In this document: positions 3,339 to 63,319 of the stretch, piece after piece
Layout of the letters: every line of letters begins with the position of its first letter
How positions within the stretch are numbered: position 1 is the first letter of the stretch
NCBI GenBank assembly: GCA_963774705.1
Contig: CAVZFW010000015.1
Coordinates: 138,046 to 202,045 of the forward strand
From: an uncultured delta proteobacterium
GTDB lineage: Bacteria; Desulfobacterota; Binatia; Binatales; Binataceae
Length of the DNA stretch: 64,000 nt
Direction of reading: 5' to 3'
Program-made: the position numbers and the translations under genes
Notes under the pieces: generated by a model
The model's input: only the letters and a program-made list of their open reading frames with translations
What the model was told of the DNA's origin: nothing
The model's database searches: none

Positions 3339-5832
<2,494 letters not shown>

Positions 5833-32717: not shown

Positions 32718-33095
32718 ATGTTATCCCGCGTCACACGTGAGCCGTGGTGCTGGGTGATTCGAGCAGCTCTTGCAATGGTGGTACGGCAGCCCGCGCTTGC
32801 TTCGGGAGGCATGATTGAGGACGCAGCCGCGGCGCTCTGCTTATTTTGCATCCCATTCCATGCGATCATTCCTTTTACGCTCATGATTTGGTCAATGCGC
32901 AGGGGCGCGTCAACGGATCTGAGACGCAACGGTGCCGTTGCAGGTCTGGTTGCCGGAGCGATCGGGGCCACTGTCCATTCGTTCAGTTGCCAGGGCGATT
33001 CGTGGGTGTTCGTTTTCCTCGGTACAGCGGCGCGCCCGCGCTATGCTCGATCATCGGAGCACGACTTGGACCTCGAGTGCTGCGCTGGTAGCTAG
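32718..33095 (+). pseudogene. NrsF (DUF1109) anti-sigma C-terminal fragment
   Basis: CLFCIPFHAIIPFTLMIWSMRRGASTDLRRNGAVAGLVAGAIGATVHSFSCQGDSWVFV parallels the C-terminal TM region of the intact DUF1109 protein at 47329-48027. Confidence 0.5.
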
Positions 33096-33924: not shown

Positions 33925-34581
33925 TTATGCGACAGAACGCTCCCGTTCGATCAAGTTCTTAAGGGCGTGGCGAGCTCGATGCACGCGGATCTTGATAGCG
34001 TTTGGTGACACCGCGAGCATTGCGGCCACCTCCCCTATGTCAAGATCTTCGATGTCCCTTAGGAGAAGAACTGCACGATAGCTTTCCGGCAATTGGTCGA
34101 TACAACGCCGCACCATTTGACGAGTCTCACGCCGGTGCACGGGATGCATGTCGCCCCATCCAGTCTGGTCAAATTCGTCGACCCATCGGCCAGCATCGTC
34201 GAACCGTGTCGACAGATCCTCGATCGGTAACTCGGGCCGACGCCGTCGGGAGCGCAGCTGCATTAATGCGGCGTTGACGACTATTCGATGAAGCCAGGTT
34301 GATAGCTTTGCGTCGGCATTGAAGCCAGCAATAGCTCTGAAAGCAGAAGCCAACGCCTGCTGGACGGCGTCTCGAGCGTCGTGCTCATTTCCCAACAACT
34401 TCCGCGCGGTCGCAAACATCCGGGCCCCGTATCGTCGCACCATCGTCTCGAACGCATCTTTGTCGTGCGCCTTGAGGCGCCTGAGAAGGTCGAATTCGCT
34501 GTGCAAGGCTGGCGCTGATAACGACGATGAGGGTATGTCGAGCAACTGTGCCGAGAAAAACTCAGAGTGTTCTGTAAGCAT
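33925..34581 (-). CDS. ECF-type RNA polymerase sigma-70 factor (sigma 1)
   Basis: Region 2 AFETMVRRYGARMFATARKLLGNEHDARDAVQQALASAF...STWLHRIVVNAAL. Region 4 LPESYRAVLLLRDIEDLDIGEVAAMLAVSPNAIKIRVHRARHAL. AAGGAG RBS. Confidence 0.9.
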   Translation of the reverse strand: MLTEHSEFFSAQLLDIPSSSLSAPALHSEFDLLRRLKAHDKDAFETMVRRYGARMFATARKLLGNEHDARDAVQQALASAFRAIAGFNADAKLSTWLHRIVVNAALMQLRSRRRRPELPIEDLSTRFDDAGRWVDEFDQTGWGDMHPVHRRETRQMVRRCIDQLPESYRAVLLLRDIEDLDIGEVAAMLAVSPNAIKIRVHRARHALKNLIERERSVA

Positions 34582-34796
34582 GACTCCTTTTTTTTCAGTT
34601 TCCGGACGAGCTACCGCCCGATTCGAGCGGCGAAGACTCGGTCGGAAGAAGTCTCCCTTTCACGGGAATGACGACGCCGAAGTGGCTCGACCTCGTGCTT
34701 AGCTGAATCCGCGAGCCTCTTCTTCGCTCTGCATCGGAGCTGGTCGGTCACACAGCGAAGTAGTGTTTTGGAGCACTAATCTCATTGTACTTAGTA

Positions 34797-34822
34797 CTTC
34801 GGATTATCCCTTACGAAGTTAC
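34797..34822 (-). promoter_or_regulatory. ECF-type promoter motif, site 6
   Basis: Minus strand reads GTAACTTCGTAAGGGATAATCCGAAG. 216 nt upstream of sigma 1. Confidence 0.55.
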
Positions 34823-35355
34823 AGGTCGAGCTGAGAAACCTTGGCGGACTCACGAGCATCTCATTGGTCGAGACCGTCGGTTTTCGAGGCCGCCAAACGA
34901 CGGCGGATAGCCATCTCGAGAGCCAATGAAACCCGCAAAGCAGTTCGGAATCGAATTAGTCGGAGAGTCTTTACCAAAGGTCGGCGCCGACCCGCTGATT
35001 AACCCCGTAGGAGAGGAATTATGGATATAAGGCGGTGCGGTTGTGGAGGGCGCAGTCAGCGCTTGATTTTTGACCGCACCCATGTTCACGCGGGACTCGT
35101 CAGAAAACTCGAGCGAGGCGAACGTGAAGTGCGGAGCTGGCGAATAGCTGCAAAGCTCCGAGTTCTCGTAAGAGCGAAAACCACAGCTGCAAGCGGCTGA
35201 ATTCCTGCAACGGCTAGTATTTGGTGATAACTTCAGCCGCCCAAGAATGTATGGAGAAAGGTGGTCATCTGGAAGGTTCAAAGTAGATACGGGAACCTCG
35301 AACCGGATCGGCCACGACAGAAATCCAATCAGGGCGCGCACTCAGCAGGTTAAGT

Positions 35356-36216
35356 ATGAATCGATCAGATTTCGCAGCGCTCGGCTTCGGCATTGGCCTG
35401 CGCCGTTCCCATTATGCACATATCCTGGAGAATCGTCCGCGGTTGGACTGGTTCGAGGTCATCTCGGAGAACTTCATGGTTGAAGGTGGCCGACCCCTCG
35501 AAGTCCTGGAGGGTGTGCGAGCTCAATATCCGATCGTAATGCACGGTGTGTCGCTTTCTATTGGCTCGACGGACCCGCTCAACGTTGTATATTTGAAACA
35601 ACTTGCGAAGATCGCGCGACGCTTCGAGCCGGCCTGGATCTCCGATCATCTATGCTGGACCAGCGTGGGCGGTCGCAATTTGCACGACCTTCTGCCTTTG
35701 CCTTACACCGAGGAGGCAGTTCGCCACGTTGCCGCGCGCCTCAGACGGGTACAAGACATCCTCGGGCGCACTCTGCTACTCGAAAACGTCTCGAGCTATA
35801 TTGCATTTACTTCATCGCAGCTCTCAGAGTGGGAATTCCTCAGCGCCGTGGCTCAGGAGGCCGACTGCGGCATCCTGCTCGACATCAACAACATATTCGT
35901 CAGCGCATTCAACCATCGCTTCGACCCGGTCGGTTACATCGATGCGGTACCCTTAGGACGGGTGATGCAGTTCCATCTTGCCGGCCATAGCGACCATGGC
36001 ACCTACCTGCTCGATACCCACGATCATCCGATTTGCCCAGAAGTCTGGACCCTCTACGAGCACGCGGTACGGCGGTTCGGTCGAGTTCCGACGCTTATCG
36101 AATGGGATGACAATATTCCGGAGTTCGAAGTCTTGGCCGCGGCTGCGGATGAGGCATGCCGGCGATGCGAGTCAGCGCTCGGCGGGGAAGGATCGGGCAC
36201 GGAAGAATGGACTTGA
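35356..36216 (+). CDS. bufB: MNIO family enzyme (DUF692, BufB/MbnB-like)
   Basis: 286-aa intact ORF. GFGIGLRRSHYAHIL...DWFEVISENFM, MHGVSLSIGSTDPL, WISDHLCW, LLENVSSY, ILLDINNIFVSAFNH, TLIEWDDNIP are canonical DUF692 blocks. Confidence 0.9.
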   Translation: MNRSDFAALGFGIGLRRSHYAHILENRPRLDWFEVISENFMVEGGRPLEVLEGVRAQYPIVMHGVSLSIGSTDPLNVVYLKQLAKIARRFEPAWISDHLCWTSVGGRNLHDLLPLPYTEEAVRHVAARLRRVQDILGRTLLLENVSSYIAFTSSQLSEWEFLSAVAQEADCGILLDINNIFVSAFNHRFDPVGYIDAVPLGRVMQFHLAGHSDHGTYLLDTHDHPICPEVWTLYEHAVRRFGRVPTLIEWDDNIPEFEVLAAAADEACRRCESALGGEGSGTEEWT

Positions 36217-37055
36217 CTCTTTCCGAACTCCAAACTTCGCTCTATCAACTGATCACGAATCCTGAGAGAGCAAAACGGATCGGCGACGACGGCGACCCCG
36301 TTTTGGGCCACGCAGAAGCATTGATCCGCGGCGACTCCCGCCTGAGCGCGAGCGAGCGGGTGACGATTTATGCCAACGCCTATTTCTATCGGCTGCTCGA
36401 CTGCCTCTATGAGGAATTTCCTGCGACGTCCGCTGTCGTTGGTGCGGACAACTTTGTCGCCCTCGTACGCGACTACTTGCGGGCGTGGCCTCCCACTGAG
36501 CCATCGATATTCTATATGGGCCGACATCTGAGTGCCTTTCTTCGCGACCATGCTTTCGCCAGGCGCTGGCCCTTCACTTACGAACTAGCGAGGCTGGAAA
36601 GGACGATTCTGGAGGTCTTCCATGCGGCCGAGGTCTTCACACTCAGCGACCAAGCGATGCGCGCTATTCCTTCGTATCAATGGCCTACGATTAGATTGAA
36701 GATACATCCAGCCGTCCAAATCCTGCACAATGAATGGCGCGTGACGGACGTATTGGGCGATGTTCAGACCGGTCGTGAATGCCGCGAGCCCGCGCATCAA
36801 AAGTCGCCAGTGATCGTGTGGAGACAAGACGCGGAGGTGTATTATCGCGCTCTGGAGGACGCAGAAGCTAAAGCGCTCGTCCTCTTGTCGGAAGGCGCAC
36901 GTTTCGCCGCAATTTGCGAGGTCGTTGAAGCCCTGACGTCGACGACTGATCAAGTAGCTCTCATTGGTCGACTATTAGCGCAATGGTTGGCGGATGGGAT
37001 CCTTGTGCGCGCTGACTTGGCGCTCACAACGTCCACGATTACTTCACGAATCTAG
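36207..37055 (+). CDS. bufC: DUF2063-family protein (BufC-like MNIO partner)
   Basis: ATG 36207 overlaps the DUF692 stop by 10 nt. LQTSLYQLITNPE...ALIRGDSRLSASERVTIYANAYFYRLLDCLYEEFPA is the DUF2063 N-terminal signature. Confidence 0.8.
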   Translation: MDLTLSELQTSLYQLITNPERAKRIGDDGDPVLGHAEALIRGDSRLSASERVTIYANAYFYRLLDCLYEEFPATSAVVGADNFVALVRDYLRAWPPTEPSIFYMGRHLSAFLRDHAFARRWPFTYELARLERTILEVFHAAEVFTLSDQAMRAIPSYQWPTIRLKIHPAVQILHNEWRVTDVLGDVQTGRECREPAHQKSPVIVWRQDAEVYYRALEDAEAKALVLLSEGARFAAICEVVEALTSTTDQVALIGRLLAQWLADGILVRADLALTTSTITSRI

Positions 37056-37159
37056 GACGTGTACGAAGCCATCCGGGGCCGCCGCACCGTCCGAAACGCT
37101 TATCGCGGTCGCGAGGTAGGGTTCGGCGTTGCAGCAGGACGGGTCATGTCGCGGACATT

Positions 37160-37675
37160 CTAATCCTGACCTTTGGGCGCTCCCGCTATCGGGGCGAAAA
37201 AGGGTGCGCAACTGTCGCGAAGAGTCTGATGGCAGTTTGCATCCGCCGCAATTTCATCTGTCAGCGGGAGCGAACTCAGGACGACGGCATGGGTGTTCGC
37301 GAAACATGCGACTACGCGCGTGGTGGCGTCGCGATCGGTGATTGCGATGATTGCATCGTGGCCGATCGCGACCGCTGACGGCGAATAAGTGTCGCCAAGC
37401 GTTGTACACATGCAGTGCTGATGCCATTCCTCAACATTCGTTTCATGGAGCGCCGCAAGCACGGCATCATGACAGGCGATGCGGGCCTGCTGGATTGCAT
37501 GACAGAAGTCGTCGTTGTCGCAGTGTAGCGCGGTGGCCGGCCATCGCGTCACGGTGCCACAAGCGGTAAGGAGAAGAGCGCTAATGAAAATCAGAAGCCC
37601 GGCCGTGGGTTTCTGAAATTTATGAGTCGGGAGCTGGTTCGCATTCACGGAGCCGCACGGGTTGCCGAGATTCAC
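37160..37675 (-). CDS. Cys/His-rich lipoprotein, hypothetical
   Basis: Lipobox LLLTAC. Mature part has HCDNDDFCH, IACH, HQHCMC, NCH, SCA. The start is GTG at 37675 or 37648. Abuts the peptidase stop. Confidence 0.5.
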   Translation of the reverse strand: MNLGNPCGSVNANQLPTHKFQKPTAGLLIFISALLLTACGTVTRWPATALHCDNDDFCHAIQQARIACHDAVLAALHETNVEEWHQHCMCTTLGDTYSPSAVAIGHDAIIAITDRDATTRVVACFANTHAVVLSSLPLTDEIAADANCHQTLRDSCAPFFAPIAGAPKGQD

Positions 37676-37676
37676 C

Positions 37677-38699
37677 TCAACGAATGTTGTTTAGCTGCCG
37701 TCTATCGGCGGCTATGGCGCGGCGGACCGATGCCCAAGGCGCACTACCAACAAAGGAGAGCGTTTTGCCGTCGACGTCGACCCCAAGCTTACTCCACAGT
37801 AGCGTCAAGTCCGGTGCGGCTGGAGCCGCCTTCATCTCATCATATAGTTGCAACAGCACCGGCACCCCGACGGCCTTACCACCAACCTCGAAAGCGTGGG
37901 TCAGAGGCCAGGCCGTCTCCATATTCCCACCGGCATCGACGATCGCTCGCAGCGCATCACGCAGGCCATAGCGATCTTTTGTCGCGCGGCGAATTCGGAC
38001 GTCAGCGAGCAGACAGAACATCGCACCGCCCCAGTATGTGCGGCCCCAGGTAGGCGTATGATCGAGTCCCTGGTCGCCGGGACGCGGCAGTCCGTACGGA
38101 AGTCCCTCCACTAAATCGCCCCAAACTTTCGTCGCGCTAATTTCGCCCGCCTCGTTTCGAGCGATCGGTTCGACGTAGGTTGCGATCCCCTCTTCTATCC
38201 AATGATGTTCAGTCGACACCGAGGGGAATGCGTAATGGACCATCTCGTGCGTCATCACCCAGTCGTTCTTGAGGTCGGCGTCGTCGGTTAGCTGACCCAT
38301 GTAAATCCGGGTAGAGACGGGGTGCGTTCCCCAACTTGTCCCACTTAGCACACCCTTACGATTCTCGACGGGAACGATCAAAATTTGCGCCTCGCGGACC
38401 GGAAAGCGGCCGTAATAGGTGATAACGGCTCTCGCCGCCGCAGTAACCCACGCGATGACATGTGTCACTGGAAGTTGAAGACTCCCCGGAGCGAATTCAA
38501 CCTTGACCGTACTATCATCGATTTTGATTGTACTCGGTATTAGCTTTGCGGAGCCGTCGATTGGGTGCACCGTTTGTTCGGTGGAAGTAACCATCTCCAA
38601 CAATCCGGCGCTCGCCGTCCGATTAGTCTCGAATCCATACGGGGCGAAGTTCGTCATCACGGAGGCGAAGAGCACCATGGCGAGCGCTAAGGTTTCCAT
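37677..38699 (-). CDS. secreted zinc metallopeptidase, peptidase-MA (M1/M61-like) fold
   Basis: Start at ATG 38699 (METLALAMVLFASV signal). HEMVH followed by WIEEGIATY (HExxH + E gluzincin arrangement). Confidence 0.65.
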   Translation of the reverse strand: METLALAMVLFASVMTNFAPYGFETNRTASAGLLEMVTSTEQTVHPIDGSAKLIPSTIKIDDSTVKVEFAPGSLQLPVTHVIAWVTAAARAVITYYGRFPVREAQILIVPVENRKGVLSGTSWGTHPVSTRIYMGQLTDDADLKNDWVMTHEMVHYAFPSVSTEHHWIEEGIATYVEPIARNEAGEISATKVWGDLVEGLPYGLPRPGDQGLDHTPTWGRTYWGGAMFCLLADVRIRRATKDRYGLRDALRAIVDAGGNMETAWPLTHAFEVGGKAVGVPVLLQLYDEMKAAPAAPDLTLLWSKLGVDVDGKTLSFVGSAPWASVRRAIAADRRQLNNIR

Positions 38700-39123
38700 T
38701 TCCACTAATGGGTTCGATCTTTCTGGAGCAACCGCCCCGTCAGCCGCGAACAAGCCTCGTGCAACCCAGTCGACTTTCTATTGCTCGTAAGATAGCGGGG
38801 ATGCCTCCCAATCTTTGCCCATGTTGCCATCACACGGCTCGGCTCGCCTCACTCGTTGCATTCGACTCTAGTAGCGGGAAGCACCGCGAGCTTTGACGAA
38901 CAACGCGCAAGAATCGCTTCGGAGAAGTTCTCCGACGGCATGCCTGAGTACAGCCTGGCAATCCATTGTTCTCGAACGGTTTATTCGAAAGGGTCATAAT
39001 TTCAGAAAAACGAGCAATAGAGTTGAGGAGTAATTCTCGCGAACAAACGGAGCAACGCTCCGACCTCGGCTACTATGACGAAGCTGTTCCAGAGCAATCG
39101 CGATCTTTCCTCTCGATCATTAT

Positions 39124-39330
39124 CTAGGCAACGACGTCGCATTTTTCCGCGGTCGATACGGGTGGACCGGGCAACGCAGTTCCCGTTCCCAGGACTTTCA
39201 ATACGCGCGAATCGTGCCAGACTTCGGGCGAGGAAAGCGCTCGGGTATTCTCCGAAGCAATTCCGCCCGGTTGAAGCTCAGTCGCAGTCCACTCGCTCCC
39301 GATGCTGAACGTTTCGTTTGCAGAATCCAT
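39124..39330 (-). CDS. 68-aa ORF created by duplication of the YHS/di-iron gene junction
   Basis: ATG 39330 is preceded by the identical 20-nt GAGTGAGTGAGGTCG leader found at 40194. MDSANETFSIGSEW parallels MDSASEPLHIDCEH. May be a remnant rather than a gene. Confidence 0.3.
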   Translation of the reverse strand: MDSANETFSIGSEWTATELQPGGIASENTRALSSPEVWHDSRVLKVLGTGTALPGPPVSTAEKCDVVA

Positions 39331-39384
39331 CGACCTCACTCACTCGTCGCCCTCTTTGAATGGGGCGTCGAGTTGCGACCCACC

Positions 39385-40194
39385 TTATGCCAAGCGCCTC
39401 TGCGAGTTGATTCTGTGAAACAGGTTGTCCGCGTCAACTCCCAGGTCTTCAAATGAGCGCCCGAGAGGAGCGAGAAGTGCTACCAGTTCACTGCGGACCC
39501 GGACCGCAGTGTTCGCCAGCAACGACATCTCGGCCCCAAGCTCGCAAGAGTGCTGGCGCGAAAACCTCGCATGCCGCGCCTCATCCGAGCGAACTCGGCC
39601 GAACATCTTTACCAGTGCAGTAGCGCGCGCGAGCGGCTTAACTACTGCCGGGAGGACGACGCAAACGGCTGAGTCAAGCGCCGCGACCCTGGCGAAATGA
39701 AGCGCGGGGTCTCGGCTGGCCACGCGTAAAAAGAACCGGCGCGTGCGCAATAGGGTGCCTCCAACATCGTTAGGCACAGAACAATAGCTGCGCAACTCTT
39801 GAATTAATCGCTCGTGTTCCAACTCGTCGGCAGCAATTCGATTCGCCAGAAATCGGCTATGGCCGGCCTGAACATTGGAGATCCGACGCCCTTCTCGCGA
39901 GAAGACCTGGAACGCCGATTCTTCGCCACAAAGCAGAGTTGGTAAGAGCCGACCGAGCGCAGTGACCTGATTGTTGGACAATACAGAAATGCTATCCCTG
40001 ATCCTGGCGATCCTGAGCCGCGGCGTTACTAGCGGACGACACGTCGGGACCAGAACGCGAGGCGAAAAACACACCGCATCTGAATCGGGGACCATTTCCT
40101 GATCGGCCACAATGCCGATAGCGTTCGTCTTAATGTCCACCTCCGGACGCTCGTGCTCGCAGTCAATGTGAAGAGGTTCACTTGCTGAATCCAT
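39385..40194 (-). CDS. hypothetical protein with ferritin-like di-iron-type motifs
   Basis: 269 aa from ATG 40194. LLCGEESAFQVF ... ADELEHERL and ... VRSDEARHARF give an E..(D/E)ExxH x2 pattern. Start overlaps the YHS gene by 17 nt. Confidence 0.45.
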   Translation of the reverse strand: MDSASEPLHIDCEHERPEVDIKTNAIGIVADQEMVPDSDAVCFSPRVLVPTCRPLVTPRLRIARIRDSISVLSNNQVTALGRLLPTLLCGEESAFQVFSREGRRISNVQAGHSRFLANRIAADELEHERLIQELRSYCSVPNDVGGTLLRTRRFFLRVASRDPALHFARVAALDSAVCVVLPAVVKPLARATALVKMFGRVRSDEARHARFSRQHSCELGAEMSLLANTAVRVRSELVALLAPLGRSFEDLGVDADNLFHRINSQRRLA

Positions 40195-40687
40195 CGACCT
40201 CACTCACTCCCTTCTTCGGATAAAACGGCCAGTTGCGATCGGCCGACGAAATGTTCCCGCTCTTGTTCAGCGACCAGAGGTGGTAGGAAAGGTAGTTATT
40301 GTTCAAATAGAGTTTGCCATCGACGATCGCCCATCGAGATGGATCTATGTCGGCAATGCGGTCTATCGCCATCGCGTAGGCACAGTAACCGCCGTACTGC
40401 GGAAGATATTTCTCCGGGTCGGACTCGAATCGTGCCAGGTTCTCGGCGGAACCGAATCGATACGTCACACCTCTCCAGCGGTAGGTATACTCGTTCACGC
40501 CAGCAGTTGGTTGGCCTATAGTGAAGTACGCCACCGGGTCATACCCTTTGAGGCCAGTACCATCTGCGGCGTTCACTGCAGCCACGGGCGTCTTTTCTGA
40601 AGCTGCTAGTGCGGAGCCCGCGCGATTCGCGAATGGAGCCACGACCAGTAGAAACCAAACCAACGCGAAGAATTGAAAGCGCTTCAT
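40178..40687 (-). CDS. secreted YHS-domain protein
   Basis: Signal MKRFQFFALVWFLLVVAPFANRAGSALA. GYDPVAYF...YRFGSAENLARFESDPEKYLPQYGGYCAY is the YHS-domain pattern. Confidence 0.8.
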   Translation of the reverse strand: MKRFQFFALVWFLLVVAPFANRAGSALAASEKTPVAAVNAADGTGLKGYDPVAYFTIGQPTAGVNEYTYRWRGVTYRFGSAENLARFESDPEKYLPQYGGYCAYAMAIDRIADIDPSRWAIVDGKLYLNNNYLSYHLWSLNKSGNISSADRNWPFYPKKGVSEVDGFSK

Positions 40688-40857
40688 AATGTCAATCATC
40701 CTTTGCATCTACACAAGAGTTATCTGTGGCGCAGATCGGACTTCATAAGGGCGTCCCGCTGAGGCCGACTCGGTGACAGTGACTGAGAGAGGAACGGTGG
40801 ATTTCACCACTCCGTGGTGTACGCGGTCCAACACCAGACACAGGCAACGTCGAAACC

Positions 40858-41055
40858 TTAAAGCTCCACCTGCACCTGCGCCGCTCCGTCCGTTTGCTCC
40901 TTAACCCACAAGACGACGCTGACCGCGTCCGCCGTTTCCTTCCATGGCAGCGGCACCCAATGGTCGCCGACTGCCACCGCCCACATATGTATGATCGAAT
41001 CGCGCCTGACGCGGATTACTTCGGTATGACTGAAATCGTAACTTAATCCATTCAT
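40858..41055 (-). CDS. 65-aa hypothetical protein
   Basis: ATG 41055 with GGAGGG RBS 6 nt upstream. MNGLSYDFSHTEVIRVRRDSIIHMWAVAVGDHWVPLPWKE. No family recognised. Confidence 0.4.
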   Translation of the reverse strand: MNGLSYDFSHTEVIRVRRDSIIHMWAVAVGDHWVPLPWKETADAVSVVLWVKEQTDGAAQVQVEL

Positions 41056-41131
41056 TGTTGCCCTCCAGTCGAACAAATAACTTTGCTCGAAGGGCCGCCC
41101 GACTCTTAAGTGCCGTCATTCCACTTTTCTT

Positions 41132-41458
41132 TCAAGGAGCCACAGCGGAGCTGATTCCCGCGCCTGCGAGACTCACGCCTTGTATGATGCATGACTCCGG
41201 ATCTCCTACCAGATCATGCTGGGAGTACAAATGCCCCGGCTTGCAGTTGTGTGATGCCTGAGGCCGAGCGTTAGCTGCAGATGGCTTGAGCCAGCTATCT
41301 TCGATAAACCCGGAGGGCGCGAGGTTATTGGACGAGACCATTTCGACCGCGCCGCTTACGGCTTGGAGTACAGTTGTTCCCGACCAAGCCGGAATTGCTG
41401 TGTTTGTCATGATTAGGCCGAAAACCGCAGCCGCTGTGCTTTTCTTGAAGCTCTTCAT
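41132..41458 (-). CDS. 108-aa secreted protein, paralog of 62999-63319
   Basis: ATG 41458 with GAAGGAG RBS. Signal MKSFKKSTAAAVFGLIMTNTAIPAWS. The C-terminal NCKPGHLYSQHDLVGDPESCII is shared with the 63319 protein. Confidence 0.6.
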   Translation of the reverse strand: MKSFKKSTAAAVFGLIMTNTAIPAWSGTTVLQAVSGAVEMVSSNNLAPSGFIEDSWLKPSAANARPQASHNCKPGHLYSQHDLVGDPESCIIQGVSLAGAGISSAVAP

Positions 41459-41531
41459 AATTACTCCTTCGGAAATTCCTTTATTTAAAAACTGATCTAT
41501 CCGTGTTGTACGCAGCTCCACCTATGGTTAC

Positions 41532-41557
41532 TTTCGGCTCCCGGTCCGGAAAGTTAC
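41532..41557 (-). promoter_or_regulatory. ECF-type promoter motif, site 4
   Basis: Minus strand reads GTAACTTTCCGGACCGGGAGCCGAAA. 74 nt upstream of ATG 41458. Confidence 0.6.
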
Positions 41558-41726
41558 AAAGACGAACTATTAGGATCGACGTCAAGACGAAAACACGGGG
41601 CCAGTTCTCGGTGCCGTTGATCGTTCGGATATCCGCCGATGTGGTCGAGCCAACCCCGATCGACGGGCCGGGACTAGTACGCTCGAACGTAATTGTTGCC
41701 GACATCCTTATTATAGTTTGCAGCCT

Positions 41727-41752
41727 GTAACTTTCGTGGGCCGCGCGCGAAT
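41727..41752 (+). promoter_or_regulatory. ECF-type promoter motif, site 1
   Basis: GTAACTTTCGTGGGCCGCGCGCGAAT. 95 nt upstream of ATG 41847. Confidence 0.6.
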
Positions 41753-41846
41753 TCCTCAAAGAAGGGAACGACAGACTGCATCGCACTGCCGCTTTCAACC
41801 GGCGGCTGGCACTCACAAACGGTAATTACCCAAAGGAGACGGGAAG

Positions 41847-42134
41847 ATGAAAGTAGCAAAGACGGGAGCCTTTCTGGCGACGGCGGTTGGGCTGATGTTC
41901 ATGGCCAACGTCGCATTGGCTCAAGAAAACGTTGCGGCGGCCGGCAGCGGCGCACCAACCACAGAGAGCGCGAAGGTGAAATGCCTGGGAGCCAATAGTT
42001 GTAAGGGACAGAGCTCGTGCAAAAGCGCGCAAAATGATTGCAAGGGACAAAACGCCTGCAAAGGTAAGGGCTTCATCGAAACGTCGAGCTCTCAGGAATG
42101 CACGCAGAAAGGCGGTATGCCGGCAACTAGCTGA
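41847..42134 (+). CDS. bufA: BufA2-like (six-Cys bufferin-type) signal-peptide precursor
   Basis: 95 aa, AAAGGAG RBS. Signal MKVAKTGAFLATAVGLMFMANVALA. Core KCLGANSCKGQSSCKSAQNDCKGQNACKGKGFIETSSSQECTQKGG has six Cys in CKG-type repeats. Confidence 0.7.
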   Translation: MKVAKTGAFLATAVGLMFMANVALAQENVAAAGSGAPTTESAKVKCLGANSCKGQSSCKSAQNDCKGQNACKGKGFIETSSSQECTQKGGMPATS

Positions 42135-42158
42135 CAGATTGTCGAATCTGTCCATGGC

Positions 42159-42196
42159 GGCAGGACGTTTTCCCTTGCGTCCTGCCGTTTTCGTTT
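42159..42196 (+). terminator. rho-independent terminator after the bufA-like gene
   Basis: GGCAGGACG-N10-CGTCCTGCC followed by GTTTTCGTTT. Confidence 0.7.
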
Positions 42197-42272
42197 CAGC
42201 CGACTGTCGGCTAGTTTACGCCCACGATCCAAAGAATAAGGAGAGCGATTATTTTCCGAGACCTGGTCTTCG

Positions 42273-43160
42273 TCAGTCGGGAGTTTTTCGATGTTTGTTC
42301 AGAACCTGATTCTTCAGGTAGGCGACAATAGGTGCGACTTCCTTAGGTTGCCATCCCTGGTAAGCCACCTTCCAGTCGACAGGCCACACTATTCTGAGGT
42401 CCTCTCGGACAGGAAGATCGGTGCGCTCATACAAGGATAAAGCCGCGATGGCCACGGTTCTTTGCATCTCTCGATCGTGGACCATCCCAAAAGGATGCCC
42501 AAAGGGAAATTCCACTCCCACAATACGCGGTAAACCGAACCGTTCCGCAAGATCGGGTAGCATCGTCACAAGAACTGTTGGAATTCCGGCAGCTTCAACG
42601 ATACGCGCCAGCACGGGCACGTTTCTACAGCAATCGGGTCAGCCGGGAGCCAGTATCAGAAGGTCGACATCCTCCTGCCGGAGCCGCGTCACGAGTTCAG
42701 GTCCATAGACATCGTGCCATGCGGTAGATGACCTTCCCTGGTAACCCATGAAGGAATAATGACTCTCGGCCAGAGAACCGATTCGTCCCTCTTCTTCGAA
42801 TTGCGCAAACACCTCGAGCGGAAGGGCGATATTAAAATCGGACACCACGTCATCGGGATTCAAATGGAGATGCGCGACCGCTATCTCATCCGCACCAACG
42901 TTGCGCGGAATAACGCGATACGTCGGGTCTCCCCACATTGGCTCTCGTCGCTCGCGCTCTAGGTCAAAGGATTGCTGCCGGTTTTTCAGATAGAGCCCGG
43001 ACGACGTCAGCAGCGTGACTCGCGCGCTCATTAAAGGCACCTTAGCTACGGCCTGCGCGAAGTCGCCGGCTTGGTACTGAAACGCCTTGAATTCCGGAAT
43101 CATACTGCGTGGCAGGAATTTGTACCCGTCTATTCTGAAGTCGTCATCGGCCTTTGTCAT
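42273..43160 (-). CDS. GrdB-family (glycine/sarcosine/betaine/proline reductase B-like) selenoprotein, UGA 42641-42639 read as Sec
   Basis: The two track ORFs (42639-43160 and 42273-42620) are in the same frame. The joined sequence VDLLILAPG-U-PDCCRNVPVLARIVEAAGIPTVLVTM...RIVGVEFPFGHPFG aligns with the GrdB Sec region as I recall it (DAVILTST-U-GTCTRCGATMVKEIERAGIPVV...IPHPLGNP). Confidence 0.7.
42600..42625 (-). promoter_or_regulatory. SECIS-like hairpin
   Basis: mRNA GAAACGUGCC-CGUGCU-GGCGCGUAUC is a 10-bp stem with one A-A mismatch and a 6-nt G/U-containing loop, starting 13 nt after the UGA. Confidence 0.5.
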
Positions 43161-47328: not shown

Positions 47329-48027
47329 TCAACCGGGGGGTTCAGTACGTGGAATGCGGCGAGGAAATCGGAGCAAGACAGCGCCAGCCCAGGTTGAAAG
47401 CGCAATAAGCGTGAACGCGGGCAACAGGTGCCAGGTGAGCAGATGCAGTGGCTCGTCGATCGGACAGACGATCCGCATCAGCGCAAATGAGAAAAACATC
47501 GCGCCGGCGCCAATTAACGACCCTGACAGCCTGCCGCGTGTCGGGAACCCGCGGCTCACGAGCCACCACAGCAGCAGCCATGGCGTCGCGGCCAGCACCA
47601 GCGTCTCGCTTGCGCAGCGCAAACCAAGGTGGAGAAATTCCTGTAACTGATAGTCGATCCGGATTGGTGCGCTGACAGTTATAAGCACGATACCGGCCAG
47701 CACCAAGGTCACCCCGAGGATGGTTTCGGCCGCGCGCAGTGGCCGCCCCGGGATGGCCGAGCGGAGGGCGAGTATCGCCGAGATCATCGCGGCGGCAACA
47801 AAGAGCACGATCTCGAGCGCATAAGCTGGCCGGTGTTCGAGCTTAGGCAGGAAATCATTGTCGGTATGCGTGATGACCCACGCCAGGACGCCGACCTCCA
47901 GGAGCATCCAGAGCACCAGCCGTACCCGCACCGGCCGCAGCCGGCGCGCCGGCTTGATCTCGTGCGCCAGCCGGCTCACCAATTCACGATGATGCTCTTC
48001 GTGGGTCCTTTGCGATAGTTCGGGCAT
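47329..48027 (-). CDS. nrsF: NrsF-type anti-sigma factor (DUF1109), intact
   Basis: 232 aa, six hydrophobic helices, immediately follows the ECF sigma with no gap. LVSRLAHEIKPARRLRP...LVLWMLLEVGVLAWV pattern of DUF1109. Confidence 0.75.
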   Translation of the reverse strand: MPELSQRTHEEHHRELVSRLAHEIKPARRLRPVRVRLVLWMLLEVGVLAWVITHTDNDFLPKLEHRPAYALEIVLFVAAAMISAILALRSAIPGRPLRAAETILGVTLVLAGIVLITVSAPIRIDYQLQEFLHLGLRCASETLVLAATPWLLLWWLVSRGFPTRGRLSGSLIGAGAMFFSFALMRIVCPIDEPLHLLTWHLLPAFTLIALSTWAGAVLLRFPRRIPRTEPPG

Positions 48028-48579
48028 CTACTCGCCGATTAGCCTTTTCAAAGCCTTGTACGCACGATGCGCTCGCACCTTCAGGGCGCCGACCGAGACC
48101 CCGGCCCGGGCCGCCGCTGCCTCGACCGACAATCCGTCAAGCTTCAGAAGCGAAAAGGCCTGACGCTGATCGGACGGAAGTTTGGCGAGAATTTCGTCGA
48201 GCTCGGGTGGCGCGGTATTGGAGCTATCCGCCGGCCGTTCAGGCAGCTCCGCGACGAGCTCTTCCCAGTGAGCGCGCGACCAGCGGCGGCGCGTGTAGTC
48301 GGCGGCAATGTTGCGCGCGATCGCAAAGAGCCAGGGCTCAAAGGGACGGCCCGGCTCGTAGGTGTGACGCGCTTCGAAGATTGCCATGAACACTTCCTGA
48401 TAGACGTCCTCGAGTTCATGCGGGTCGGCCACGCGGCGTCGCAAAAAGTACGTCAACGACGGCCCAATATCGTCCAGCAGCGCACTGCATGCGCCGGAAT
48501 CGCCCTGCTGCAACTGCTCCATCAGTCGAGCGCGGCGGCGAGTGCGCTCAAGACGCTGGGCTTCATCCGACTCTTTCAT
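48028..48579 (-). CDS. ECF-type sigma factor (sigma 2, SigF-like, paired with NrsF)
   Basis: Region 2 ELEDVYQEVFMAIFEARHTYEPGRPFEPWLFAIARNIAADY. Region 4 LPSDQRQAFSLLKLDGLSVEAAAARAGVSVGALKVRAHRAYKAL. The true start may be Met20 (48522), see findings. Confidence 0.9.
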   Translation of the reverse strand: MKESDEAQRLERTRRRARLMEQLQQGDSGACSALLDDIGPSLTYFLRRRVADPHELEDVYQEVFMAIFEARHTYEPGRPFEPWLFAIARNIAADYTRRRWSRAHWEELVAELPERPADSSNTAPPELDEILAKLPSDQRQAFSLLKLDGLSVEAAAARAGVSVGALKVRAHRAYKALKRLIGE

Positions 48580-51377: not shown

Positions 51378-52028
51378 TCAGTGAATGACCGGATATGATT
51401 CCGCGGCCACCATTTTCAGTTGGATCGATCGGGAGCGAAGGTAGGCGATGGCGCGAACCGCGAGCAATATCGCGAGAACCAACCCATAAGCCATCGGCTC
51501 GCGCACGTCGCGCTTGACCCTCCAGGTGAAGTGAATGACGGCGAGCGTCGGCGCCACGTAAGCCAGACGATGAAGCTGCTTCCATCGTACGTAACCGAGA
51601 CGTTTGACCGCCCGGTTTGTCGATGTCGCGGCGAGCGGCAGCAGCAACACAAAGGTGGCAAACCCGACGAAAATGAACCTCCGCTTCACGACATCGTCCG
51701 CGATCGCCCGCCAATCAAGACCTTGGTCCAACGCGGTATAGGTGGTGACGTGCAGCAGGGCATAGAAGGCAGCGAGGAGACCGAGCATCCGTCTCAACCG
51801 CATCGGCCAGGTCCAACCAAGAAGTGCCTTCAGCGGCGTGCACGCAAGCGCCGCGACCAGGAAGACGAGCGCGATCAACCCCAGTTGATTCAAGGCCTGG
51901 GCGATTGGATCTGCTCCAAGATCACCGTGCCAAGCCCGCAGCACAATGGCAGCGATCGGAACGAGCGATCCGGTGAGGACCGCCGGCTTGAGCCATGGCA
52001 GTGGCGGAAATTTCCCCGACGCTCCCAT
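51378..52028 (-). CDS. msrQ: protein-methionine-sulfoxide reductase heme-binding subunit MsrQ (YedZ)
   Basis: Start ATG 52028, 3 nt after the msrP stop. Ferric-reductase-like TM protein with LGLIALVFLVAALACTPL, RRMLGLLAFYALLH-type His helices, HRLAYVAPTLAVIHF. Confidence 0.85.
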   Translation of the reverse strand: MGASGKFPPLPWLKPAVLTGSLVPIAAIVLRAWHGDLGADPIAQALNQLGLIALVFLVAALACTPLKALLGWTWPMRLRRMLGLLAAFYALLHVTTYTALDQGLDWRAIADDVVKRRFIFVGFATFVLLLPLAATSTNRAVKRLGYVRWKQLHRLAYVAPTLAVIHFTWRVKRDVREPMAYGLVLAILLAVRAIAYLRSRSIQLKMVAAESYPVIH

Positions 52029-52030
52029 TT

Positions 52031-53026
52031 TTAGAAGAACCTCCGAAGATCCATTCCGGCATACAAGCCCGCGACCTGCTCCGCGTAGCCATTGAACGGC
52101 AAAGTTGGGCGGCGGTGATACTCGCCGATCCGCCTTTCGCTCGCCTGGCTCCATCGCGGATGATCTACGGCCGGATTCACGGTCGCGTAAAAGCCGTACT
52201 CCGCGGGCGCCGCGAGGTTCCAGGTGGTGGGAGGCGGCTGCTCTGCGAGACGAATTTTTACAATCGATTTGATTCCTTTGAATCCGTATTTCCAGGGGAC
52301 CACGAGTCGCAGAGGCGCCCCATTCTGGTTCGGCAGTCGCCGGCCGTAGAGGCCGACCGCGAGGATGGTTAACGGATGCGTCGCTTCATCGATGCGCAGC
52401 CCCTCGACATAGGGCCAATCGAGCAGACGGCTGCGCTGTTCCGGCATCTGTTCGGGATCGAGCAGGGAGGTGAACTCTACATACTTCGCGCGGCCGTTGG
52501 GCTCGACCCGGCGCAGCAGCCCTCCGAGCGGGAAGCCTACCCACGGAATCACCATCGACCAGCCTTCCACACAGCGCATACGGTAAGTGCGCTCCTCAGG
52601 TGGAAACCACCTGAGGAGTTGGTCGATATCGACGACGCGTGGCCTTGACACCTCGCCCTCGATCGTCACCGTCCACGGATACGGCCTGAGCGTGCGCGAG
52701 TTCTCGGCCGGATCGTTCTTGTCAGTGCCGAACTCGTAGAAGTTGTTGTAAGTGGTTACGCTGTCATATGTCGTCTTCAATTCTCCCGCGGCATAATCTG
52801 CTCGCCGAGCGATCTCAAACCCGGGGGAAGCCAGCAGTGCGTGCGCCTTCGCAGTTTCGTTACGGACATTGGCGCGAAGGCCTCGCATCAGCCAGAGCAG
52901 CGTGCTTCCGACACCAGCGCTCGTTGCAGCGAAGAGCGCGGAGTTCCGTAGGAATTCGCGACGCCTAAGGTATACCCGCTCGGGAGTAACCTCACTCGCG
53001 GGCTGGGTTTTGCCAATGCTGTCCAT
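52031..53026 (-). CDS. msrP: protein-methionine-sulfoxide reductase catalytic subunit MsrP (YedY), Tat-exported molybdoenzyme
   Basis: 331 aa. Tat-like [74 protein letters not shown] are YedY blocks. Confidence 0.9.
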
Positions 53027-53172: not shown

Positions 53173-53198
53173 TTTCGGATGAGGGCCAGATAAGTTAC
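53173..53198 (-). promoter_or_regulatory. ECF-type promoter motif, site 5
   Basis: Minus strand reads GTAACTTATCTGGCCCTCATCCGAAA. 146 nt upstream of the msrP ATG. Confidence 0.55.
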
Positions 53199-53394
53199 AG
53201 GGTCTTAAATTCGACTTCAAAACTCTGACGCTCGTGTTCGACACTGCATGCTTGGAAGGCATCGGCTCTTTGAGGTGCATGGCACAGTCGCCGCCGATCG
53301 AAAAGTGCTGCGTGAGCAGCAGGTCAGGCGGCACGGTGGCGACGCACGAGACGCAAGTTGAAGCCGAGCTAGGCCCCACCAGCCAGGGCCGAGA

Positions 53395-60149: not shown

Positions 60150-60854
60150 ATGACATCCGCCATCTTATCGTGGAGCAATGCTGCACACCATAGCGACCAT
60201 GACGCGGCGCCCGCAGTTCCCTATAAGATCGTCGAGATTCAATCAGCTTCGACGCAATTTAAATGGCGGACGTTACGGTTGGGCAAAGAAGATCTAAACA
60301 GTCGTTTTGAACTGCTGGTGCTGCCGCATCTCGACTCCGCCTACAATCTCGCCCACTGGCTCTTGCGCGATGAGCAGGACGCGAAGGATGTTGCGCAGGA
60401 AGCTCTGCTGCGTGCGTTCAGATTTTTCGATCAATTCCGCGGAATGGACGCGCGCCCATGGCTGCTGAAGATTGTGCGCAATGCCTCGTTTACGTGGCTC
60501 CAGCAAAAGCGCGCGAAGAACGCTGTCTCCCTCGACGATGATGACGAAGAAGATCAAAACCAAATCCAGGGCGCGGCGGCCACCTCGAGTCACGCTCCGG
60601 ACAGCATCGCCGCCGATCCAGAGGAACTGATGCTGGCGAAGGTCGATCGGCAGATTATGAATGCCGCGATCGAGCGTCTACCGGTCAAGTTCAAGGAAGT
60701 CCTGCTTTTGCGTGAATTCGAAGATCTCTCGTATAAGGAGATCGCGATGGTTGCTGAAGTCCCGGTCGGCACCGTGATGTCTCGGCTCGGGCGCGCTCGC
60801 GCTTTGCTGACAAAACACCTGCAAGAAGAATTGAGCACTAAGGTGCCAGTATGA
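60150..60854 (+). CDS. ECF-type sigma factor (sigma 3)
   Basis: LDSAYNLAHWLLRDEQDAKDVAQEALLRAFRFFDQFRGMDARPWLLKIVRN (region 2). LPVKFKEVLLLREFEDLSYKEIAMVAEVPVGTVMSRLGRARALL (region 4). The N-terminal 45 aa may not be coding. Confidence 0.85.
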   Translation: MTSAILSWSNAAHHSDHDAAPAVPYKIVEIQSASTQFKWRTLRLGKEDLNSRFELLVLPHLDSAYNLAHWLLRDEQDAKDVAQEALLRAFRFFDQFRGMDARPWLLKIVRNASFTWLQQKRAKNAVSLDDDDEEDQNQIQGAAATSSHAPDSIAADPEELMLAKVDRQIMNAAIERLPVKFKEVLLLREFEDLSYKEIAMVAEVPVGTVMSRLGRARALLTKHLQEELSTKVPV

Positions 60855-61624
60855 ATTGCGACGAGTCTAAGGTGTTATTGCATGGCTATCTAGACGGAGA
60901 ACTCGATCCGGCAGGCAGCCTGACGTTCGAGGCCCACCTCGCATCCTGCAAGGACTGCGGCAAGGAAGTCCCAAAGTACAAAGACCTTGGCGCCGCGGTT
61001 CGAAACACGGCCGAGTACTTCACCGCACCGCAAGATCTACGCTCCACAATTGTTTCTCAATTGCGCCCGTCGCCCGGAAAGGCAGCGTGGAGGCCCAGCA
61101 GATTGCCGGTCTGGCAAGTGCTGGTGGGCGCCGTCGCCGCGTTGTTGATTGCAACGGTGGGTCTCAACACGATCCTGGTGCATCGGTCTGCGGAGAGCTT
61201 CATCGCACAGGAGGTCGTGGCTAGCCACGCCCGCTCGCTGATGGCCAATCATCTGTTCGATGTGGTCTCGACCGACCGGCACACAGTAAAGCCCTGGCTC
61301 GACAAGAACCTGGATTTCGCCCCGGTGGTAGTTGATTTCGCGAAGCAGGAGTTCGCCCTGGCTGGCGGCAGGCTCGATTACCTCGACCATCACCAGGTCG
61401 CCGCCCTCGTCTATCGGCATCGGCAGCATATTGTGAATGTTTTCATTTGGCCGGCCGCAGATGTGGGTGACTTGGCTCCGCAATGGATCGTGCAGCAAGG
61501 TTACAACATCGCGCACTGGACCGAATCGGGGATGAACTATTGGGTCATTTCCGATGCGGATCGAAGCGGTCTCAATGATTTCGTCGGGTTGCTGCGCGGC
61601 GCGGCGGCGCACACTCCTAGCTAG
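60851..61624 (+). CDS. zf-HC2 anti-sigma factor, single TM
   Basis: ATGA overlap with sigma 3. MNCDESKVLLHGYLDGELDPAGSLTFEAHLASCKDCGKE (H-x3-C-x2-C). TM VLVGAVAALLIATVGL. Confidence 0.8.
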   Translation: MNCDESKVLLHGYLDGELDPAGSLTFEAHLASCKDCGKEVPKYKDLGAAVRNTAEYFTAPQDLRSTIVSQLRPSPGKAAWRPSRLPVWQVLVGAVAALLIATVGLNTILVHRSAESFIAQEVVASHARSLMANHLFDVVSTDRHTVKPWLDKNLDFAPVVVDFAKQEFALAGGRLDYLDHHQVAALVYRHRQHIVNVFIWPAADVGDLAPQWIVQQGYNIAHWTESGMNYWVISDADRSGLNDFVGLLRGAAAHTPS

Positions 61625-62998: not shown

Positions 62999-63319
62999 TT
63001 ACGGCGCCACCGCCGTACTGTTTCCGCCGATAGTCAGGACGCCCATGATGCAGGCTTGTGGGTCGCCCACAATGTCATGCTGCGAATAAACGTGCCGCGG
63101 TCTGCAGTTCATCTGGTCTTGGTGTGGAGCGGTGTCCAGTGCAGATGGCACAAGCCAGCTTCTCGCCGCGGGTAGCGATCTGGTTACGTTTTTCACGAGC
63201 ATTACGTCGGCACTGATTGGCACTGCGGCTGCGCCAGTAGCCGACCATGCCGGTATACATGCTGCGCCGATAAGCAAGCTGGACATCAAAGCTGCTGCTG
63301 TCGTCTTAACAATCTTCAT
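62999..63319 (-). CDS. 106-aa secreted protein, paralog of 41132-41458
   Basis: Signal MKIVKTTAAALMSSLLIGAACIPAWS. C-terminal NCRPRHVYSQHDIVGDPQACIMGVLTIGGNSTAVAP matches the 41132 protein. Confidence 0.6.
   Translation of the reverse strand: MKIVKTTAAALMSSLLIGAACIPAWSATGAAAVPISADVMLVKNVTRSLPAARSWLVPSALDTAPHQDQMNCRPRHVYSQHDIVGDPQACIMGVLTIGGNSTAVAP

Follow-up and report, generated by a model that had tools for sequence, protein, structure and literature searches.

Does a run of uncharacterised genes on one strand, behind one promoter, amount to a system? The question is raised by a block of seven open reading frames (ORFs; g1 to g7, all within 37160-41521) in a 64,000-nucleotide (nt) stretch of contig CAVZFW010000015.1 from an uncultured delta proteobacterium of the Binataceae; this stretch is hereafter called the window, and positions refer to it. 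The block lies among the genes of a Buf2 bufferin locus, bufferins being the largest known group of MNIO-modified peptides. Our answer is that the block is probably a mosaic accessory region, by now partly decayed, of a SigF/NrsF-type extracytoplasmic function (ECF) sigma factor stress island around the Buf2 locus, and that it holds no single dedicated pathway. It consists of three modules, one of them truncated: g1 and g2; a YHS-domain protein gene (g3) and a di-iron protein gene (g4), with the stub of a third gene (g5); and a peptidase gene (g6) with a lipoprotein gene (g7). What is new is a set of unreported accessory genes in an otherwise known type of SigF/bufferin island. The most valuable lead is a link between the peptidase and Buf2 clusters that published bufferin surveys do not report, and the second is the di-iron family with its DedA and reductase partners.

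Three modules and their erosion

The start codons used for g1 to g7 are those of public gene calls for identical sequences or homologues (Table 1). A first-pass annotation, made from the sequence letters alone, had described the block as minus-strand genes with short gaps or overlaps. The common strand, the 17-nt overlap of g3 and g4 (40194/40178) and the g6 stop abutting the GTG of the g7 ORF (37677/37675) were all borne out, whereas the remaining gaps, of 76, 170, 54 and 424 nt, are not uniformly short. The 424-nt gap splits the block into halves and contains both a deletion scar and a terminator-like hairpin (39062-39048). Hairpins of this kind in the block are weak only and no strong intrinsic terminator was found within it; an Rfam search of 34500-42400 returned no RNA family. 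When the seven block proteins were scanned against Pfam and NCBIfam, the YHS protein alone scored.

The window was compared with related contigs and loci, designated by L-numbers. Block gene order is kept in close relatives only, namely in L086 (a metagenome contig with 92% nucleotide identity to the window), where it reads BufA2(-) / g1 g2 YHS g4 KASIII ABC ABC2 ... peptidase g7 / BufC BufB(-), and, with extra genes, in L003 (80-84%). Outside these close relatives the block genes split into independent modules. A recurrent set is found on many related contigs in varying order: Buf2 genes, DoxX, the peptidase, a YHS-KASIII-ABC2 unit, a g4-VTT-reductase unit, MsrPQ and SigF/NrsF. That the same families cluster in different orders argues for a shared stress theme, not one fixed pathway. 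The first-pass annotation had asked whether the order next to BufA2 and MNIO genes is conserved; it is in L086 and L003, and it is not in wider relatives. Its proposal of one undescribed system of this composition is therefore not supported, as the modules are separate away from close relatives and one of the supposed genes is a deletion stub.

The stub is g5, previously listed as a 68-amino-acid (aa) ORF with a duplicated start. The duplication is real and corresponds to a direct repeat (D1) whose copies are 76% identical with a 24-nt exact core, and which is also present in L086 and L003, but the ORF is no gene. What remains corresponds to the N-terminal 62-65 residues of a 388-aa FabH-like ketoacyl-acyl carrier protein (ACP) synthase III (KASIII) with 74% identity in L003 and 54% in L001; a complete thiolase-fold enzyme is not encoded, as the rest is absent from the window. 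In blastn alignments, window 42300..39145 corresponds to L086 1015..4169 and window 39097..36099 to L086 7836..10834, both at 92% identity. These breakpoints show that the window is without 3.67 kb, comprising most of KASIII, the genes for an ABC ATPase and an ABC-2 permease, and the beginning of the ORF after them. The deletion is not an assembly error, because gene lengths and spacing are the same in an independent contig of 16 kb. Relocation of the KASIII and ABC genes within the window was also rejected, with only distant ABC paralogues found, at 16-19 kb. In L001, L111, L115 and L023 a YHS gene directly precedes KASIII, within a YHS-KASIII-ABC-ABC2 unit. The simplest reading of these arrangements would be an ancestor ordered YHS-g4-VTT-reductase-YHS-KASIII, which lost all but the tail of its second YHS gene in an earlier deletion.

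Two further observations touch this region. In L086, the nearest relative in which the segment is intact, KASIII (3975-5151) is itself distributed over two frames, as ORFs 3975-5018 and 4864-5151, which may reflect decay predating the window's deletion or a sequencing error. On a contig of JGI 3300050821, a YHS gene (169 aa), a 74-aa ORF and the peptidase gene, without g4, are convergent on HvfC/MNIO genes; a further KASIII stub may be what the 74-aa ORF represents, and the deletion there would then be either similar or independent.

The window's copy of the island is eroded in three ways: by the KASIII-ABC deletion, by a BufA2 remnant before bufB and by a truncated NrsF ORF. Searched by tblastn with BufA of L004 and L001, the remnant appeared as two high-scoring segment pairs in different frames with internal stops, and this BufA2-type precursor is therefore a pseudogene. 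The NrsF ORF near the first sigma gene (32718-33095, plus strand) is truncated, since it spans only positions 93-180 of the 204 in the Pfam profile. Insertion sequence (IS) elements adjoin the homologous region in L004.

SigF-type promoters and the bufferin genes

The ECF promoter that had been placed at 41557(-) is an exact SigF-type motif. The pattern TGTAACTT-N14-CGAA has four exact sites in the window, versus 0.12 expected from shuffles; a looser GTAAC-N16-CGAA finds the same four, and the expectation across both patterns is 0.12-0.35. As g1 is among the four, the block sits in a SigF-type island, and g1 is a direct target of a SigF-type promoter. The motif before g1 is also kept in L086. 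Among the block genes g1 alone has it directly upstream, and with up to one mismatch allowed no further motif was found in the block's internal gaps, before bufB or before a g1 paralogue described below. In the other loci the motif precedes the peptidase gene in 0 of 85 cases, the di-iron gene in 0 of 38 and the YHS gene in 0 of 16. A promoter type common to the block and its neighbours, as first proposed, thus holds for BufA2 and not for the MNIO pair.

The window also contains the sequence features that mark a SigF/NrsF regulon, i.e., the promoter type and a sigma gene with its own motif together with NrsF. Kohler et al. gave the Caulobacter SigF site as GTAACC-N16-CGAA, in a regulon that includes two bufferin operons and yedY (msrP) (PMC3511200), the Azospira SigF regulon is yedYZ-mrpX (PMC4436054), and SigF control was confirmed in the bufferin paper (PMC11626156). 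The gene pair behind the fourth promoter in the window is probably MsrP/MsrQ-like, judging from an Oxidored_molyb and Ferric_reduct pair in a related contig. An intact second sigma/NrsF pair, 13 kb away at 47329-48579 (-), encodes an ECF sigma factor of 183 aa and a full-length NrsF of 232 aa; a GTAAC-N16-AGAA sequence at 48603-48579 abuts the annotated start codon of this pair.

The core of the Buf2 cluster (BufA2, BufB, BufC and optionally DoxX) is formed by the flanking genes only, with BufA2 and BufB passing the NCBIfam cut-offs. The seven block genes have no match to a core bufferin family, and as a group they are not conserved Buf2 members: the peptidase alone recurs, g1, g2 and g7 are lineage-specific, and the YHS and g4 genes belong to other modules. 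Just beyond BufA2, 42273-43160 (-) encodes a protein of 173 aa that is GRDB-like (PF07355, 1.3e-8) and a partner of 115 aa; in L004 a 173-aa GRDB-like gene followed by a 112-aa ORF lies ~4.2 kb upstream of the peptidase gene.

Table 1. Genes, promoters and rearrangement features in and around the block (window positions).
Feature	Position	Strand	Description
g1	41132-41458	(-)	108-aa Sec-secreted protein with C-terminal two-Cys loop NCKPGxLYSQHDVVGDPExC
g2	40858-41055	(-)	65 aa, without signal peptide; GGAGGG six nt before ATG
g3	40178-40687	(-)	Secreted YHS-domain protein, 169 aa
g4	39385-40194	(-)	269-aa predicted cytoplasmic ferritin-like di-metal carboxylate protein, unnamed family
g5	39124-39330	(-)	68-codon 5' stub of FabH-like KASIII gene (pseudogene)
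g6	37677-38699	(-)	340-aa extracytoplasmic gluzincin zinc metallopeptidase (HEMVH...E188), unnamed family
g7	37160-37648 (or 37160-37675)	(-)	162- (or 171-) aa lipoprotein, lipobox LTAC
SigF-type ECF promoter of g1	41533-41558	(-)	Exact TGTAACTT-N14-CGAA (GTAACTT-N14-CGAA), ~75 nt upstream of the g1 ATG
SigF-type promoter of ECF sigma gene	34798-34823	(-)	Exact motif; sigma gene 33925-34581
Divergent SigF-type promoter of BufA2	41726-41751	(+)	Exact motif
SigF-type promoter of MsrP/MsrQ pair (putative)	53174-53199	(-)	Exact motif; genes 52031-53026 and 51378-52154
bufB (MNIO)	35356-36216	(+)	NF050167 match 7.2e-116
bufC (DUF2063/HvfC-type)	36156-37055	(+)	
BufA2	41847-42134	(+)	NF050166 match 6.7e-24; sole intact BufA2
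BufA2-type precursor remnant	35034-35268	(+)	Directly upstream of bufB; pseudogene
Deletion scar	39098-39143	inverted	46-nt piece, 98% identical to L086 7570-7615, between the two breakpoints
Direct repeat D1	40156-40209 (copy 1), 39292-39345 (copy 2)		54 nt; YHS gene tail and start of the following gene

The peptidase-Buf2 link and the protein families

To profile the surroundings of the peptidase gene we used the best 80 species-level loci and counted Buf and DoxX genes within 10 kb. BufA2, BufB or BufC was present in 18 of them and DoxX in 12; the chance of finding a random gene this close to a bufferin cluster is about 1%, a rough estimate and not a computed value. The Buf-linked loci fall into ~7 separate clades of the peptidase tree and belong to Binataceae and "delta" metagenome-assembled genomes (MAGs), Kofleriaceae, Verrucomicrobiae, Burkholderiales and Acidobacteriota (Bryobacterales, Acidobacteriaceae). 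Several arrangements were seen: the order peptidase->BufA2->BufB->BufC->DoxX in L024, L049 and L067, BufA2...DoxX->peptidase in L068, peptidase->DoxX in L083, DoxX->peptidase divergent from the Buf genes in L040, and a peptidase gene convergent with the Buf genes in the window, L004 and L005. In L024 and L049 a SigF promoter sits between the peptidase gene and BufA2, indicating separate transcription units. Unsupervised clustering of the peptidase neighbours, based on stop-to-stop ORFs, confirmed only the Buf and DoxX clusters, with spurious overlapping frames arising in the high-GC genomes. In the two Kofleriaceae MAGs L014 and L041, BufA2 follows the peptidase gene and is itself directly followed by a BufC-like gene, with no BufB (MNIO) match in either locus. 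A survey of MNIO clusters found other conserved genes only in "extremely low proportions"; the word peptidase occurs nowhere in its main text and protease once, in a general remark on clusters for peptides made on the ribosome and modified after translation (RiPPs; PMC12452194).

The peptidase belongs to a very large unnamed family that counts at least 6987 homologous clusters and is without a Pfam domain throughout; in the species-level genome collection a relative is encoded by at least 598 stretches (598 of 600 among the matches listed). Residues H169, E170, H173 and E188 are invariant in the alignment, as is the whole HEMVH...EEGIATY motif by which the gene had first been recognised as a secreted metallopeptidase. 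Every homologue has an N-terminal hydrophobic segment, so the protein is extracytoplasmic. Neither single-sequence nor profile searches against PDB sequences gave anything significant. Its AlphaFold2 model (predicted local distance difference test, pLDDT, 81.4) was matched by Foldseek to M61 (7xyo, E 1.8e-7) and M1 (6kp0 and 4fgm) peptidases, with E-values of 1.8e-7 to 1e-5 and a Foldseek probability of 1.0. The HExxH motif, the Glu ligand on the following helix and the predicted thermolysin-like catalytic fold place it among the gluzincins (MA(E)). It is not a member of M1, as it has no GxMEN, an X14 spacing by inspection and a best PF01433 E-value of 0.1, nor of M61, to which it bears a fold resemblance only (best PF05299 E-value among 32 family members, 0.14).

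The lipoprotein gene g7 follows the peptidase gene in L004, L005 and L086 and is 3.5 kb off in L003. It has homologues in only 11 clusters and is lineage-specific. Invariant residues are the Cys of the lipobox, eight Cys besides it and four His, in line with the eight Cys noticed initially; the start differs, as homologues are 162 aa long and the g7 start is thus probably at 37648, ~28 nt after the peptidase stop.

The suggestion that g4 has a di-iron fold was well founded. Its family comprises 141 homologous clusters, mostly from soil metagenomes with few exceptions and all without a Pfam domain, in which the ExxH motifs are conserved: E94/E95, H130, D177, E208 and H211 are invariant and E127 nearly so, and C45, C92 and C181 are also invariant. 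The AlphaFold2 model (mean pLDDT 75.7) has ~60 disordered N-terminal residues followed by eight helices, and in it the ligands lie on four core helices (77-107, 113-138, 166-191 and 195-221) in the canonical pattern, i.e., the four-helix E...ExxH...E/D...ExxH arrangement of the ferritin-like di-iron carboxylate superfamily. The best Foldseek matches were cyanobacterial aldehyde-deformylating oxygenase (ADO), R2-like ligand-binding oxidase (R2lox) and stearoyl-ACP desaturase, and all top matches are di-iron proteins; template modelling (TM) scores normalised to the target were 0.64-0.70 for ADO and ~0.5 for R2lox. Each of these three is a di-metal protein with a fatty chain as its substrate or ligand. 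Single-sequence and profile searches against PDB sequences gave nothing significant (ADO at E 1.5 in the profile search), and a Pfam scan of every alignment member gave sub-threshold hints only. We therefore describe g4 as a predicted ferritin-like di-metal protein, a fold assignment and not a family membership. It is not assigned to the ADO family, and none of the loci contains an acyl-ACP reductase gene.

Where the flanking DNA was sufficient, the g4 homologue is followed by DedA/VTT in 17 of 26 loci and by KASIII in 2 of 26, and a YHS gene lies immediately upstream in 9 of the 24 informative ones. After VTT, relatives carry an NF004991 FAD-containing oxidoreductase related to MerA and RclA; VTT and this reductase are both absent from the window. 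In L111 (817-1467) mere fragments of the VTT and MerA-like reductase genes follow g4, a separate partial deletion in the same island. The YHS protein itself, rightly recognised from the start as secreted, is a member of NF041384 YHS_seleno_dom (1.9e-42, 144.1 bits versus a cut-off of 70) and also matches Pfam YHS (2.7e-6).

The two small proteins were likewise correctly described, g1 as secreted with the C-terminal motif NCKPGHLYSQHDLVGDPESC and g2 by its GGAGG ribosome-binding site. No Pfam or NCBIfam match was found for g1, and its family has 57 cluster representatives among 1.8 billion proteins, in which a Sec signal peptide is joined through a variable linker to a C-terminal loop that is conserved. 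Both Cys of the loop (C72, C90) and G85 are invariant, and Y78, H81 and D86 are nearly so. The window encodes a 106-aa g1 paralogue at 62999-63319 (-), 41% identical and with the same two-Cys loop; a further ECF sigma gene (60150-60854) is found nearby, together with the ORF that comes after it (60851-61624). We considered g1 as a bufferin-like MNIO substrate and rejected this, as an MNIO gene adjoins neither the paralogue in the window nor the two contexts read. Distant g1 homologues sit on contigs too short to show their surroundings, and nothing ties the family to MNIO genes. Homologues of g2 were found in close relatives only (77% identity in L003, 88% in L086), in a cluster of 12 members.

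Readings of the block and comparison with known systems

In the mosaic that we favour, metal or reactive-chlorine stress would lead the sigma factor to transcribe g1, with probable read-through into g2, the YHS gene and the di-iron gene. The YHS protein would bind metal in the periplasm, and the di-iron protein may be an O2-dependent oxidase or oxygenase for a hydrophobic or lipid-like substrate, working in most relatives with the DedA membrane protein and the MerA/RclA-like flavoprotein reductase that are both lost here. The peptidase and lipoprotein would form a separate periplasmic unit, expressed from its own promoter or by read-through, and could trim or degrade bufferin or stress-damaged envelope proteins. 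These biochemical roles are all ones that we infer. It is a tentative possibility that the peptidase is an accessory Buf2 enzyme that trims, activates or recycles the copper-binding peptide, and that g1 and the di-iron/DedA/reductase module are new parts of the SigF response to metal or reactive chlorine in soil bacteria.

Several observations weigh against this mosaic and the roles given to its parts. L086 and L003 keep all modules contiguous and co-directional, as one functional unit of the lineage would also be, and the weakness of the hairpins is compatible with a single transcript through g7. An exact SigF motif before the peptidase, g4 or YHS gene is missing from the other loci. The peptidase occurs away from Buf genes in 62 of the 80 loci, a large Acidobacteriaceae/Terracidiphilus clade of its tree has no Buf2 link, and three distant homologues stand in unrelated contexts. 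The substrates and metals proposed for the block proteins are putative.

Three other explanations were considered. If the block were one operon, its seven genes would form a single new pathway for periplasmic metal or oxidant handling, or for peptide maturation and export, working with the bufferin genes. All of them are co-directional behind one SigF promoter, their order persists in L086 and, with additions, in L003, no strong terminator intervenes, and all products are secreted, metal-related or redox-related. Yet the exporter genes are deleted and one of the seven is only the stub of a pseudogene, most other loci have the modules apart from one another, g1, g2 and g7 do not extend beyond close relatives or small families, and a 424-nt gap with a hairpin divides the halves, so that we regard the single operon as quite improbable. 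The general periplasmic metal or oxidant theme of the first-pass annotation does fit, given the same promoter type before the sigma gene, BufA2 and MsrPQ, but not as a single module. Of its alternative, a module for peptide maturation and export, what is left is a hypothesis on the peptidase, since the window has lost the ABC exporter of the relatives.

That hypothesis can stand alone, with the peptidase as a dedicated bufferin-processing or turnover enzyme, a new Buf2 accessory component, and the rest of the block incidental. The frequency of nearby Buf2 genes, across several taxa and arrangements and well above the rough chance estimate, argues for it, as does the N-terminal signal or anchor that would bring the enzyme into the compartment of mature bufferin. 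Most family members are, however, not near Buf genes, the transcription units are separate in L024 and L049, and characterised bufferins need only Sec and signal peptidase (PMC11626156); we consider the dedicated enzyme doubtful, though the least unlikely of the three. Slightly less probable is that unrelated neighbours were gathered by rearrangement in a recombination-prone region and, g1 apart, have no regulation or function in common with the bufferin genes. Rearrangement scars (the deletion, the BufA2 remnant and the truncated NrsF), the IS elements in L004 and the varied neighbourhoods among relatives, including the unrelated contexts of distant peptidase homologues, are as this explanation would have them. 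It would not lead one to expect Buf2, DoxX, the peptidase, YHS, g4, VTT, the MerA-like reductase and MsrPQ to recur together, in different orders and on many contigs, a pattern unexpected by chance.

If the peptidase lead is right, a periplasmic metallopeptidase that is conserved next to Buf2 clusters across several phyla would bring a further step into bufferin maturation or turnover. Neither the peptidase family nor the di-iron family has a model in Pfam or NCBIfam, and many soil genomes would be better annotated if both were named. The locus is also an example of the erosion of a stress island, with its mapped deletion, its pseudogene of a precursor and its truncated anti-sigma gene, and cautions that a co-directional run of ORFs need not be a system.

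Among known systems, the SigF/NrsF stress regulon of Caulobacter, Azospira and Bradyrhizobium resembles the window in having GTAAC..CGAA before the sigma gene, the bufferin precursor and msrPQ (yedYZ), with NrsF-family anti-sigma genes and DoxX nearby. The window's motif, GTAACT-N15-CGAA, differs from the published GTAACC-N16-CGAA by one base and a spacer one position shorter; its regulon would add g1 and perhaps the YHS and di-iron genes, which published regulons do not contain, and near the first sigma gene NrsF is present only in truncated form. As in Buf2 clusters, BufA2, BufB, BufC and DoxX are all found around the block, but beside bufB the precursor has decayed to a pseudogene and 4.8 kb separate bufC from the intact BufA2 downstream of it, and the published survey has sigma/NrsF genes in Buf1, not Buf2, clusters (PMC12452194). 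The peptidase has the HExxH, the downstream Glu on the next helix and the fold of the M1/M61 gluzincin aminopeptidases, yet it is much smaller (mature domain ~280 aa), has HExxH-X14-E instead of the HExxH-X18-E of M1 and lacks the GxMEN exopeptidase motif. The predicted g4 protein carries the E...ExxH...D...ExxH ligand pattern of ADO and R2lox on four core helices; it has no significant sequence similarity to them, an Asp as its third carboxylate, three extra invariant Cys and the disordered N-terminal region, and its genomic partners are DedA/VTT and a MerA/RclA-like reductase in place of an acyl-ACP reductase. The g4-DedA/VTT-NF004991 unit of the relatives in turn recalls RclA/MerA-type flavoprotein reductases with a DedA partner and would fit a theme of copper or reactive-chlorine stress, although both genes are absent from the window; we know of no di-iron partner in the characterised RclA or MerA systems.

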